64,000 nt of DNA from a virus. Its lineage: Duplodnaviria; Caudoviricetes. Of the stretch, positions 2,017-45,736 are shown one piece after another. The position numbers and the translations under genes are program-made. The DNA lies in IMG/VR virus record IMGVR_UViG_3300014208_000024, positions 32,001-96,000 of that record, one strand, 5' to 3'. Every line of letters starts with the position of its first letter. Position 1 is the first letter of the stretch. The notes beneath the pieces are model-generated. The model ran no database searches. It saw only the letters and a list, made by a program, of their open reading frames with translations, and was not told the DNA's origin.

Positions 2017-2586
2017 TTATAGTTTATAATTTTCATTTAATCCAGCATGAATTTCTCCATGACAATTTCTACACACCAAAATACATTTATCAACTTCTTT
2101 TTTTAACATTTCTAAACTACAAGATTTTCCAGATATTGTAAAATCTTTTTCTTCTGGATTTAAGTGATGAAATTCTAAAGATTGAGAACATTTTTTATAA
2201 CCACATTCAACACATTCCCCTCCCTTATATTCTATTAATTTTTGTTTTACTTTTTGTCTCCAACTAATAACATTATTAGAGCGTCTTTTTTTAATAGTTT
2301 CTTCATCCATTTTTTTTCTATCTATGGTTATAATATATTTTAAAACAGTAGATTTACTATATTCAAACTCTTTTGCTGTTTTTATACAAGATTTACATTT
2401 ATCATAAAACTCTTGCATTTGAATAATTTTTTCTTCCGTCGGTTTTTTAAACACTTTGAATTTAGATTCTTTTCTACAATGAAAAGAAACTGTTGATTTA
2501 GCACAACCAAGTGCTGTTGCAATTTCGTTATAACTCAAACCTTGAGTTCTTAACTTTAAAATTTCAGTTTTCATACTTTTTACCAT
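2017..2586 (-). CDS. HNH endonuclease with N-terminal HTH repeats
   Basis: CVECGY...LEFHH...CILVCRNCHGEIH. Confidence 0.9.
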   Translation of the reverse strand: MVKSMKTEILKLRTQGLSYNEIATALGCAKSTVSFHCRKESKFKVFKKPTEEKIIQMQEFYDKCKSCIKTAKEFEYSKSTVLKYIITIDRKKMDEETIKKRRSNNVISWRQKVKQKLIEYKGGECVECGYKKCSQSLEFHHLNPEEKDFTISGKSCSLEMLKKEVDKCILVCRNCHGEIHAGLNENYKL

Positions 2587-2660
2587 TTTATTAACATTTT
2601 ATGTTAATAAATAGGTAAAAATTTAAAAATTATAAACACTATTTCAAAGAACTTAAAAAA

Positions 2661-2808
2661 ATCCAGGGAAAATTTGCAAGGGTATAAATTACGTGCTCTA
2701 CCAACTGAGCTATCTCTCCAATTTTGTTTCTATTGCGGAGAGAGCAGGACTCGAACCTGCGACAACGGCATTAACAGTGCGAAGTAACCCTAACGATGGC
2801 CACTGGAA
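2661..2808 (-). ncRNA. Y-RNA-like element Y2 (permuted tRNA, Asn GUU loop)
   Basis: Family stem; order anticodon hairpin, T-arm, acceptor, D-arm. Confidence 0.75.
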
Positions 2809-2839
2809 TTATTTTCAATATTTTAAAGAACATATTTTG

Positions 2840-2913
2840 CGGGTATCAAGGGATTCGAACCCCCATGGTCTTGGTTAACGGCCAAGTGCTTCATCCAGTT
2901 CAGCCAAATACCC
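2840..2913 (-). tRNA. tRNA-Asn(GUU)
   Basis: CTTGG-CCGTTAA-CCAAG. Confidence 0.85.
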
Positions 2914-2917
2914 ATAA

Positions 2918-3138
2918 GAAAATTTCGGGGAAAAGCAGCAAAAGTGTTTTTTCTATTCTCTACCACTGAGCTACATCCCCCATGTTTTGTATGATATTTC
3001 ATACATTAATGCCGTTTTTTGTACATAATGTAGTACATATCCAACATTATTTGGAGGGATGGTGGGATTCGAACCCACGACCTTTTGAATCATAGTCAAA
3101 TGCGAAGTAACTCTTGCAATTGCCACCGAAAAATTTTC
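2918..3138 (-). ncRNA. Y-RNA-like element Y3 (permuted tRNA, AUG/His loop, long acceptor linker)
   Basis: Family stem; TTTGA-CTATGAT-TCAAA; T-arm precedes D-arm. Confidence 0.75.
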
Positions 3139-3443: not shown

Positions 3444-4136
3444 TTATATTAAGCTCAAAATTGTCCTCTCAACAATTTTTTTCATATAATGCATATCTGT
3501 TTTATTTAAATTATAGTTTGGTGAAATAAAAGGAGCATGTGAATCCCATTTTCCACCCGTATTTCCATCTGTGGATTTTAATATTGTTTGTTTTCCCTCT
3601 CCCCTAAATGCTTTATAAGCGCCATCCTTTTCAGCTGATATTTCTAAAACAACATCTTCATAAAGCACTTCAACATCAACTCTTCCTGGTGCCCCAAACA
3701 TTATTTTATAATCTTCTGTGATTAAATCAAAAACTACAATTAAATTTCCTTTTTCATTAACACTTATATCTTTAATATTAATTGATTTTGGTTTTTCTTC
3801 AGCGCACATTTTACTTATAACCCACTTTATTTCTGAATCAATTTCTTTTTCTGTTTTTTCTGGGATCGGTATAATATTAAATGGATTTGTCAAAACTCTA
3901 TTTCCGCCTGTAAAAAGTAAATATTCTGCTCTTTCTGGAAACCATTTCAAAACTTTATGTTCGCCATATACTGGTTTAATATTATACACTGTTCTTCCAA
4001 CTAAATCTTCAAATTTTTCTATTCCCAATTTTTCTAATTGTTGTTCATATTCTTCTTTTGAGAAATCTCTAAAATTTGTAACATCAATTGTTGCAAGTTC
4101 TTGCAGTCTTTTTTTATATGATTCTGATAAATTCAT
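3444..4136 (-). CDS. Hypothetical protein with N-terminal LSESYKKRLQELA motif (probable virion protein)
   Basis: ORF; start moved to MNLSES; motif shared with 5308..5688. Confidence 0.7.
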   Translation of the reverse strand: MNLSESYKKRLQELATIDVTNFRDFSKEEYEQQLEKLGIEKFEDLVGRTVYNIKPVYGEHKVLKWFPERAEYLLFTGGNRVLTNPFNIIPIPEKTEKEIDSEIKWVISKMCAEEKPKSINIKDISVNEKGNLIVVFDLITEDYKIMFGAPGRVDVEVLYEDVVLEISAEKDGAYKAFRGEGKQTILKSTDGNTGGKWDSHAPFISPNYNLNKTDMHYMKKIVERTILSLI

Positions 4137-9289: not shown

Positions 9290-9519
9290 AAAAATTATGT
9301 AGATTTGATCCTAACATAAATTTTCTAATCAGGTTGAATTAAAGAATGTAGAGTTTTTTGTTTTTTTAATCATAGGAATTTTTTTTCAAACAAATTTCTT
9401 AAGTGGATTTTTCCACCTTTGTCTTAAAAGACTCTTTAAAATAGATATAAATATCTTCCTACTATAATAAATAGTAAAAAAAAATCTCAACCCTTTCGAA
9501 TTGAGATTTTTATAAAACC

Positions 9520-10250
9520 CTGAGATTATAGGTTTAGTGAGTCAACTTTCGGGGGATTATTGGTTCCCCACCTTATCCACATACCTTGCGGCATGTACCA
9601 ACTCAATCTCGATTGGTTAGACCAATCACCTCTTTCGTCATAAACTACTCTACTGCTACTACCGCCATAACAAGAGTGCCCCCCTGCCATAACATTTCAC
9701 AATAATCCGTTAAACCTTGCGAGTCAAACGTCCCCAGTTCAACCGAAGTTGCCAGGATCTGAGAGACCTTTCGCCTATAACGCCAGCGGAACTTTTGCTT
9801 GCTTGAATTTTTTTCATAAAATTGAAGTTGTGCTTTTAATTGAAGATGTGCCGCTGGAACAGCTTCGTTCCTTTTGGGAACGAAATACTATACACCCTCT
9901 GCGCCCTTTTGCATCGGTACGCTCTCACCTTCGCCGCCCTGTAACTCTTACGAGAACGAGAACTCCAAAGATAAATGGAACACGCTCTAAAGCTTGCTAA
10001 ACCTTGAACATTATTCCTCGGCTTTTCCTATTGCCCCTTTCGGAGATCAACCGCCTCAAGCACTTCAGAGACGATATTTCACTCAGCAGTTGCCCTTGTG
10101 AAATGTACTAACCTATTGTATGCTCGACTTCTTTTCAAAAGCGACAAGATATTAACCTCGCCTTTATCCTGGTCACCCAGTTTATTTTCCTGACCCTTTC
10201 GGATCAGGCTTGACCACCAGTAGGTTGTCAACGACAGCACACTGCCATAA
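9520..10250 (-). ncRNA. Large structured ncRNA, GOLLD-like (about 730 nt)
   Basis: GC-rich non-coding island with many GNRA/UUCG hairpins, own promoter, boxA and terminator; size and tRNA-proximal phage context fit GOLLD. Confidence 0.6.
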
Positions 10251-10370
10251 ATTTTTTATCAATATTTTAAAGAACGTATCTTACTTAATTTTCTACTCTA
10301 TACGCAAAGATAAGAAAAAAGTTTCAAAAAAACAAGTTTTTTTTATTTTTTTTTTAAAAAACTTTTTTTA

Positions 10371-10454
10371 AGAGACGTAACCAGGCTGCTCAACCACTAC
10401 CCTTGCTTTCTTCCGAACCTGGGGGAGTTCGTAGGAGCCTGCCTGTTACGCTTT
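10371..10454 (-). ncRNA. ffs: Small SRP (4.5S) RNA
   Basis: Long hairpin with CAGGTTC-GGAA-GAAAGCA domain IV motif; boxA and promoter upstream. Confidence 0.85.
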
Positions 10455-43417: not shown

Positions 43418-43548
43418 TAATCGAGACATAATCGAGACATTAATCGAGACATTGTGTCCCGATTATGTCCAGATAAACCATTTTTTAACACTAATCCAGA
43501 CATATTCTGGACAAGTTGTCCAGAAAAATGTCCAGATTATATTGTCCC
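43418..43548. repeat. Cluster of about 9 direct and inverted TGTCYNGATTA-like repeats
   Basis: TAATCGAGACA x3 tandem, then TGTCCCGATTA, TGTCCAGATAA, TAATCCAGACA, TCTGGACA, TGTCCAGA x2. Confidence 0.75.
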
Positions 43549-44800: not shown

Positions 44801-44808
44801 TTATTTTG

Positions 44809-44880
44809 TAGCTGCTGGAGGAATCGAACCTACAACCCTGGATAACTATTTCCAGAATTTAACTCCATCATTTCGCAATG
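44809..44880 (-). pseudogene. Degenerate tRNA-like sequence (8-nt loop AATAGTTA)
   Basis: T-arm intact; CTGGA/TCCAG stem; 5' acceptor unclear. Confidence 0.35.
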
Positions 44881-44998
44881 TGTGCTACACATTGTTTTTT
44901 TACATGTTTTGCAAACTTTACTCACAAACAACTACAGCTGATTGTTGTTTGCTTTCATCATTCACTCCACAATCTGAAACGTGTTAAGCAGCCATTTG

Positions 44999-45067
44999 TA
45001 GGCGGAGATGGATACGAACCACCAATCTTCTATTCGAAGATAGACGCTTTACTTAAGCTACCCGCCT
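44999..45067 (-). tRNA. tRNA-like gene, 6-nt anticodon loop CTTCGA (Arg UCG-like)
   Basis: AGGCGGG/TCCGCCT acceptor; TCTAT/ATAGA stem. Confidence 0.55.
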
Positions 45068-45103
45068 GGGCTTTTCCAATACGTCAAAGAACTTTTTCTT
45101 TTG

Positions 45104-45156
45104 TCGGGGAGAAAGGACTCGAACCTCTCGCTGCAACCATTATTTGCATTTCCCCG
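45104..45156 (-). ncRNA. Anticodon-arm-less tRNA-like RNA
   Basis: CGGGGA/TCCCCG acceptor, single TGCAA/TTGCA arm, T-arm. Confidence 0.6.
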
Positions 45157-45204
45157 TGGTGCTGAGAAGGGGATTTAAACCCCCTGCATCACTAAAGACT
45201 CAGC
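45157..45204 (-). ncRNA. Acceptor/T-arm minihelix ending ACCA, overlapping the Pth2-like stop codon
   Basis: GCTGAG/CTCAGC-ACCA; GGGG-TTTAAAT-CCCC. Confidence 0.6.
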
Positions 45205-45588
45205 GTTTTTATAACTATTTTTATCTATTAAACCATTTAAATTATTTTCTTTTAGGGCACAAGGTAAATTCCTACACACCCTTTTTGATTCATCGGATGG
45301 TTCTAAAGCAATAGCCGTAACTTGATTGTCAATATCAGGCTCTCTAAAGATGGAAATAGTAATTCCCCTTGAGTGAGCTTTTTCAATCAAGAACAACATT
45401 TCTTTTTCGTCTTTTACAGACAAATACGCTAAATAATTGGAATTTTTGTGCCAGGAGTTGGCGATGTTATTGTGTTCTAAACAAAATTCAGCTAAAGCGT
45501 GGCCGCCTTGTACAGCTTGATAAGCAGTGGTCAAATCTCTTCTGACAACCACTATTAATTTTGCATTATTCTCAACAATCTATAACAT
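45175..45588 (-). CDS. Pth2-like peptidyl-tRNA hydrolase with in-frame UAG at codon 3
   Basis: VVRRDL...QAVQGGHA...FREPDIDNQVTAIAL; upstream in-frame ATG TTA TAG ATT GTT. Confidence 0.8.
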
Positions 45589-45736
45589 AACTTCTTTTTT
45601 AATAAATATTCAAAAATTTTGTTTTCTACCAATCTATACGCAAAGATATAAAAAAAGTTACATAAAAAGCAAGAAAAAATAGTTTTATTTTACAACTTTT
45701 TATGTAACTCTTTGATTTTCAAATATAAAAATTTAT

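Follow-up and report, generated by a model that had tools for sequence, protein, structure and literature searches.

The last codons of a Pth2-like gene in a giant groundwater phage (complete record, 372 kb, 29% GC) fold into a tRNA-like structure that continues past the stop codon, raising the question of whether the structure serves the gene as a control element or is an RNA gene that overlaps it. The window analyzed here is a 64,000-nt stretch of the phage record, and its relevant features are collected in Table 1. The initial annotation described the structure, here called unit 1, as an acceptor/T minihelix ending in ACCA. The fold and the ACCA stand, but the helix is not continuous, since a 13-nt linker splits the 5' strand of the acceptor from the T arm.

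Table 1. Features of the Pth2-like gene and the tRNA-like array behind it, in window coordinates.
Feature	Position	Strand	Basis or remark
Unit 1, 48-nt armless mini-tRNA	45157..45204	-	Fold and homolog covariation
Unit 1 acceptor, 5' strand	45204-45198	-	
Unit 1 conserved linker, 13 nt	45197-45185	-	Unpaired
Unit 1 T stem	45184-45180 / 45172-45168	-	Four G-C and one G.U
Unit 1 T loop, 7 nt	45179-45173	-	
Unit 1 acceptor, 3' strand	45167-45161	-	
Unit 1 A73-CCA (ACCA)	45160-45157	-	
UAA stop of Pth2-like CDS, T-loop positions 56-58	45175..45177	-	In frame
Unit 2, anticodon-less mini-tRNA	45101..45156	-	Acceptor, one D-like hairpin, T arm, ACAA
Unit 3, tRNA with shortened anticodon loop (6 nt)	44998..45067	-	No readable anticodon
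Unit 4, ~185-nt tRNA-ended RNA	44806..44993	-	7-bp acceptor and T arm around several hairpins
Pth2-fold (PF01981) gene	45175..45588	-	ATG 45588; in-frame TAG at codon 3, 45582-45580
TAnnTTTG promoter-like element	45641..45648	-	Same motif upstream of homologous genes; predicted function

The acceptor of unit 1 has 6 bp in this phage (45204-45199 with 45166-45161), and its position 7 is a U.U mismatch here that pairs in four of seven homologs. The predicted fold has a free energy of -16.7 kcal/mol (z -2.47; 3 of 200 shuffles equally good) and is retained in the MFE and centroid structures of its 161-nt context. For this copy, ViennaRNA favors slipped pairing in the G/C-run T stem (canonical register P ~0.16), and the canonical register is assigned on the basis of homolog covariation. 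A strict shape descriptor matches unit 1 alone across all 372 kb, compared with 0.13 matches per block-shuffled genome, making the shape alone modest evidence; a relaxed descriptor adds just the abutting unit at 45156-45101. Neither ARAGORN nor Rfam, even at E 10, calls unit 1 as a tRNA, and no second copy was found elsewhere in this genome.

Homologs bear out the conserved pairing claimed for the 3' end of the gene. Of 16 close Pth2-like homologs, seven have a related tail, and seven distinct overlapping versions, including that of this phage, make up the covariation set (12 pairs, 84 cells). Bases are paired in 95.2% of the 84 cells, two-sided changes occur in 5 of the 12 pairs, and 0 of 500 shuffles are as good, while slid control structures pair 48-55% in the same seven sequences. 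Related sequences without structure can beat such a shuffle control, and the free-standing copies described below are the stronger evidence. The base preceding G1 varies freely among homologs, so conservation begins at G1. All nine sequences compared have a 13-14-nt linker between acceptor and T stem, lack C56 (position 56 of the T loop is U or A), and have no D loop; five encode CCA, and A73 is the sole invariant among the acceptor-identity features compared. The T stem is weakened in the L016 copy. A linker hairpin of 2-3 bp has one compensatory case (L014), is broken in others, and is not claimed.

The overlap covers the last nine codons and the stop of the Pth2-like CDS. Third-position differences are 0.22 in these tail codons against 0.44 in the protein core, second-position differences are 0.28 against 0.12, and synonymous differences are 0.075 against 0.27. 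The nine-residue tail has a pLDDT of ~52 and no secondary structure in the structure model, which together with the substitution pattern points to constraint on the RNA and not on the protein. The dual coding put forward in the initial annotation thus gains support from both homolog pairing and tail codons, and its placement of the UAA stop inside the T loop is correct. Overlapping copies are of two types, one with a 13-nt linker and the loop TTTAAAT (n=4) and one with a 14-nt linker and the loop TTAAAAT (n=3). UAA stands at codon 10 in both, so that the stop falls within the T loop in 7/7 overlapping copies; a swapped or canonical loop would let reading run on by 19-48 codons. The frame-breaking combination of linker and loop is present in free-standing L018. 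This coupling suggests selection to terminate in the T loop, although it may reflect a single event, and the plain need for a stop explains it equally. Since non-coding copies carry both loop variants, an origin of the T-loop UAA for the sake of the overlap was rejected.

Free-standing copies of unit 1, detected with a pattern scan and a covariance model, are present in two phages that are more distantly related, L018-20 and L029 (49 bits). These copies sit 0.8-1.2 kb downstream of Pth2-like genes, with other tRNA-like units and a CUA tRNA as neighbors. Their acceptor stems differ from those of the overlapping copies yet are fully paired, and 13-14 of 14 linker nucleotides are identical to the counterpart in this phage. 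The Pth2-like proteins of these phages have only 43-50% identity. Two free-standing lineages were found in all, and 82 further viral records reached via the loci yielded one real copy. Other candidates were rejected: the covariance-model match in L091 is the 3' part of an ordinary-looking tRNA, those in L133 and L140 have no CCA or no acceptor, and a pattern match in L022 lacks the T arm, sharing the 5' part only, and falls in a coding-like stretch. Searching viral and genome collections for exact patterns produced either no new case or chance matches (L094 and L095 were left out), and blastn against cultured phages gave T-arm matches only.

In close relatives the overlap is replaced. An unrelated ORF of ~120 residues follows a different gene tail in L087 (2288-2680), L088 (3855-4211), L096 (3374-3763), and L139 (3315-3671); this ORF family is charged, has no Pfam match, and is absent from the genome studied here. 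In L008, the Pth2-like gene likewise has a different tail and is followed directly by the Rid gene. In L088, unit 2 and the remaining array come after the replacing ORF, indicating that unit 1 alone was replaced. The near-identical sister proteins P0007 and P0012 (support 99/93) differ in the overlap; on a tree of weak resolution, its presence or absence requires two or more changes. Comparative sequence evidence, namely covariation, free-standing homologs, and the abutting second mini-tRNA, confirms that unit 1 is real. The free-standing copies and the ORF replacement imply that the overlap is optional and that unit 1 is an RNA gene itself; judged from its sequence relatives, unit 1 is an independent anticodon-less mini-tRNA and not a purpose-built Pth2 operator.

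The units behind unit 1 are likewise tRNA-like; the initial annotation overlooked both this tandem array and the amber-interrupted start of the CDS at 45588. The 5' end of unit 2 is the base directly after the unit 1 ACCA, and unit 2 is conserved in homologs, including L088, which has no unit 1. Homologs of unit 3 carry UUCG/UUUG-type tetraloops at the anticodon loop, which marks unit 3 as a conserved non-decoding tRNA. The 3' part of unit 4 folds with z -3.2 and has counterparts in L010, L015, and L088. No terminator-like site was found between the Pth2-like gene and the array, and given the upstream promoter-like motif the array is probably co-transcribed behind the gene. Among 57 distinct Pth2-like loci, 32 have a CUA tRNA at most 1.8 kb downstream, and nine have a short anticodon-less element downstream, with none upstream or on the opposite strand.

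ARAGORN reports 46 tRNAs in the genome, including two CUA suppressors and one UUA suppressor, and Glu and Ile tRNAs are absent among them. Most tRNAs of this phage have no encoded CCA, and ACAA is the commonest 3' end. No genome match to tmRNA or RNase P RNA exceeds the cut-off. The same phage has matches to GOLLD RNA (226 bits) and small SRP RNA at 9517-9900 and 10370-10453 on the minus strand. A short block of TCCAGA/TCTGGA repeat units lies just upstream of the CUA tRNA (43430-43540) and also occurs in L008 and L096. The arrays of L018 (reverse, ~2430-3100) and L029 (3140-3770) also contain small CCA-ended RNAs built differently, some duplicated, in which a TTAAGT-type hairpin replaces the T arm. 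In L011 (~655-820), L014 (~1323-1488), and L015 (~3733-3895), tRNA bodies conserved across relatives keep intact D and T arms and have a ~100-nt insert in place of the anticodon arm.

The Pth2-like gene begins ATG-TTA-TAG (45588-45580), and an early-codon amber is present in most family members examined; an independent DNA run reproduces the stretch 45245-45678 exactly. Contigs from the two DNA runs leave 45160-45203 uncovered. The gene is the sole convincing early-amber case in this genome, and global stop-codon recoding finds no support, coding density being 0.74 against 0.75 with TAG read through. The start resembles a peptidyl-tRNA drop-off minigene. In L047, L065, and L075, the gene just downstream of the Pth2-like stop apparently starts ATG-NNN-TAG, which raises the possibility that early-amber gating extends beyond a single gene. 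The product matches the PF01981 profile at 39.2 bits (cut-off 23) and archaeal Pth2 structures at E 6e-8. The catalytic residues of archaeal Pth2 are Lys, Asp, and Thr; in the alignment a Tyr stands at the Lys and an invariant Glu at the Asp, with no conservation of the Thr. The phage protein retains the Pth2 fold, and its catalytic residues are not clearly conserved. TAnnTTTG is a promoter element of the Bacteroidetes -7 type, and its occurrence upstream of this gene and its homologs suggests a Bacteroidetes host.

The explanation we favor, with somewhat better than even confidence, is that host RNase P and CCA-forming enzymes excise unit 1, which then acts in trans as a mimic of the tRNA top half. 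As covariation and the free-standing homologs show, unit 1 is a stand-alone RNA gene that keeps the acceptor, T arm, and NCCA, with a conserved 13-14-nt loop replacing the D and anticodon arms. A host RNase P cut in front of unit 2 would expose the ACCA of unit 1, ACAA-ended copies would be trimmed and then receive CCA as the ordinary tRNAs of the phage do, and a second RNase P cut at G1 (45204) is probable and would free a 48-mer. Uncharged, the freed RNA might bind or titrate a protein that reads tRNA acceptor/T ends; candidate partners are the neighboring Pth2-fold protein or a host anti-phage factor that attacks tRNA. The CDS overlap would be lineage-specific packing, tolerable given a dispensable nine-residue tail and a UAA in the T loop that ends translation, with a stop-less pth2 mRNA as a by-product of excision. 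A role in trans is favored by the conservation of the linker and by the placement of free-standing copies among other cleavable units. Model substrates made of acceptor and T stem are cleaved by RNase P, as are T4 dimeric precursors with spacers of <5 nt (PMC11143913), although the missing C56 and D loop may weaken recognition of unit 1 by this enzyme. Loss of unit 1 in close relatives, the weakened T stem of L016, and the small number of free-standing lineages also count against this explanation. It is plausible that unit 1 serves as a processing signal, as the initial annotation proposed; at free-standing copies between tRNA-like units, an additional cut signal is redundant.

Compatible with excision in trans, and differing in that the overlap is selected for control, is the possibility that unit 1 acts in cis as a t-element. 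An RNase P cut at G1, which is a codon boundary, would produce a non-stop pth2 mRNA, and the protein would be tmRNA-tagged and destroyed unless trans-translation is saturated, following the logic of arfA and brfA; folding would compete with ribosomes that arrive only after amber read-through. The plant t-elements of nad6 and ccmC do make 3' ends inside reading frames (PMC1920247), arfA and brfA, whose tails are dispensable, are expressed from non-stop mRNAs (PMC8012679), the pth2 tail is likewise dispensable, and linker length and loop variant are coupled in 7/7 overlapping sequences. Close relatives, however, end the gene normally ahead of the ORF, the coupling has the simpler readings given above, and the UAA was not made for the overlap; we consider selection for control unlikely. 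Distinctly unlikely, in our judgment, is a joint reading in which a translation-rescue-type protein is doubly gated, the codon-3 amber requiring the phage suppressor tRNA and the RNase P cut removing the stop, so that the protein persists only if trans-translation by the host fails; the excised 48-mer would be a tRNA-mimic ligand or decoy. If the Pth2-fold protein instead bound the mimic in its own mRNA and blocked translation, termination, or processing, the gene would be autoregulated, as the initial annotation also suggested. E. coli Pth1 does bind an isolated CCA-acceptor-T domain via its backbone (PMC3488237), and the exclusively downstream placement of short elements fits such a scheme, but Pth1 and Pth2 are unrelated folds, initiation cannot be blocked from a 3'-terminal site, 48 of 57 loci have no short element, free-standing copies lie outside the coding part of the mRNA, and phage tRNA clusters collect translation genes anyway. 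We consider autoregulation very unlikely.

Two further readings concern the RNA itself. A decaying tRNA remnant with no current role would account for the patchy presence, the repeated ORF replacement, and the weakened L016 copy, yet it sits poorly with compensated stems, an identical reduced architecture, and a near-identical linker in phages with such divergent Pth2-like proteins, and we hold it to be highly improbable. The initial annotation also raised an aminoacylatable mRNA end, in which the ACCA-ended mRNA or the freed RNA would be charged, like viral tRNA-like 3' ends or tmRNA. The encoded CCA, invariant A73, and paired acceptor agree with charging, but acceptor pairs 1-3 vary: pairs 2-71 and 3-70 differ among the clade of this phage, L018, and L029, and in contrast to the tmRNA TLD, position 3-70 is U3-A70 here, C-G in L018, and G-C in L029, with no G3.U70. 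RF00023 (tmRNA) has no match at unit 1 and none over the cut-off in the genome, and neither helix 2 nor a tag frame is present. Some synthetases need the D or anticodon arm, and unit 1 has neither. Charging is very improbable as a conserved function.

T4 RNA C and RNA D lie in a tRNA cluster, have tRNA-like ends, and exceed 100 nt. Unlike unit 1 they have no CDS overlap, and the two are likened by description and not by sequence. These stable RNAs of T-even phages are described as non-decoding and of unknown function (PMC9697503; Moen et al. 1978 via PMC11143913). Relative to canonical tRNA (RF00005), unit 1 lacks the cloverleaf D and anticodon arms and has only its 13-nt linker, whereas its family shares the 7-bp acceptor, 5-bp T stem, 7-nt T loop, and NCCA. 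In a strict minihelix the acceptor strand is continuous with the T stem, where the unit 1 family has the linker. Synthetic minihelix substrates of RNase P and Pth1 contain the same 7+5 bp coaxial domain with NCCA (PMC11143913, PMC3488237); unit 1 differs in being natural and in its conserved 13-14-nt loop between acceptor and T stem. The TLD-only RNA of mycobacteriophage DS6A and the tmRNA TLD also combine an acceptor and T arm with a stemless loop for the D arm and no anticodon, and the DS6A RNA is a possible protein-titrating decoy, as proposed here for unit 1 (PMC4131195).

The nearest parallels to the overlap come from other systems. In the plant mitochondrial nad6 and ccmC t-elements, a tRNA-like fold likewise starts inside the 3' end of the reading frame and spans the stop, and RNase P cuts at its 5' end to give a stop-less mRNA (Forner et al. 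2007, PMC1920247); for unit 1, this cleavage is predicted. Unit 1 has the tRNA-like fold overlapping an mRNA end that characterizes t-elements, but its family lacks the defining GGTTCRANYCC T-arm motif, position 56 never being C. It further differs in belonging to a phage and not an organelle, in its 48-nt length without D or anticodon arm, in its non-canonical T loop, and in also occurring free-standing. In arfA and brfA, as in pth2, the final codons of a translation-rescue-type gene contain a structure, and the encoded tail is dispensable; control in arfA and brfA is proven and runs via RNase III or a terminator, whereas pth2 has a tRNA mimic that is absent in close relatives (PMC8012679). 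A literature search of incomplete coverage found no description of the unit 1 family.

The cultured mycobacteriophage Bxz1 (NC_004687; L135 6373-6641) carries a tandem array of four unannotated tRNA-like RNAs, none with a normal anticodon arm. This array starts ~10 nt past the stop of the Pth-like gp154, which has an ATG-TAG in frame ahead, and precedes a CUA tRNA. The module layout is the same as in the phage studied here and the RNAs are different; inspection by eye gave no convincing overlap where the Bxz1 Pth-like gene ends.

Unit 1 represents an unannotated family of natural 48-49-nt mimics of the tRNA top half that is missed by ARAGORN and Rfam. The overlap is clade-limited and dispensable, which tempers its significance, and the functional role put forward here is a proposal. 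In phages, the overlap would correspond to the plant mitochondrial t-elements that produce stop-less mRNAs. More broadly, an amber-interrupted Pth2-like gene, anticodon-less RNAs, and a CUA suppressor tRNA form a recurring phage module, and because its general layout is also found in Bxz1, the role of phage non-decoding tRNA-like RNAs is testable in a cultured phage.
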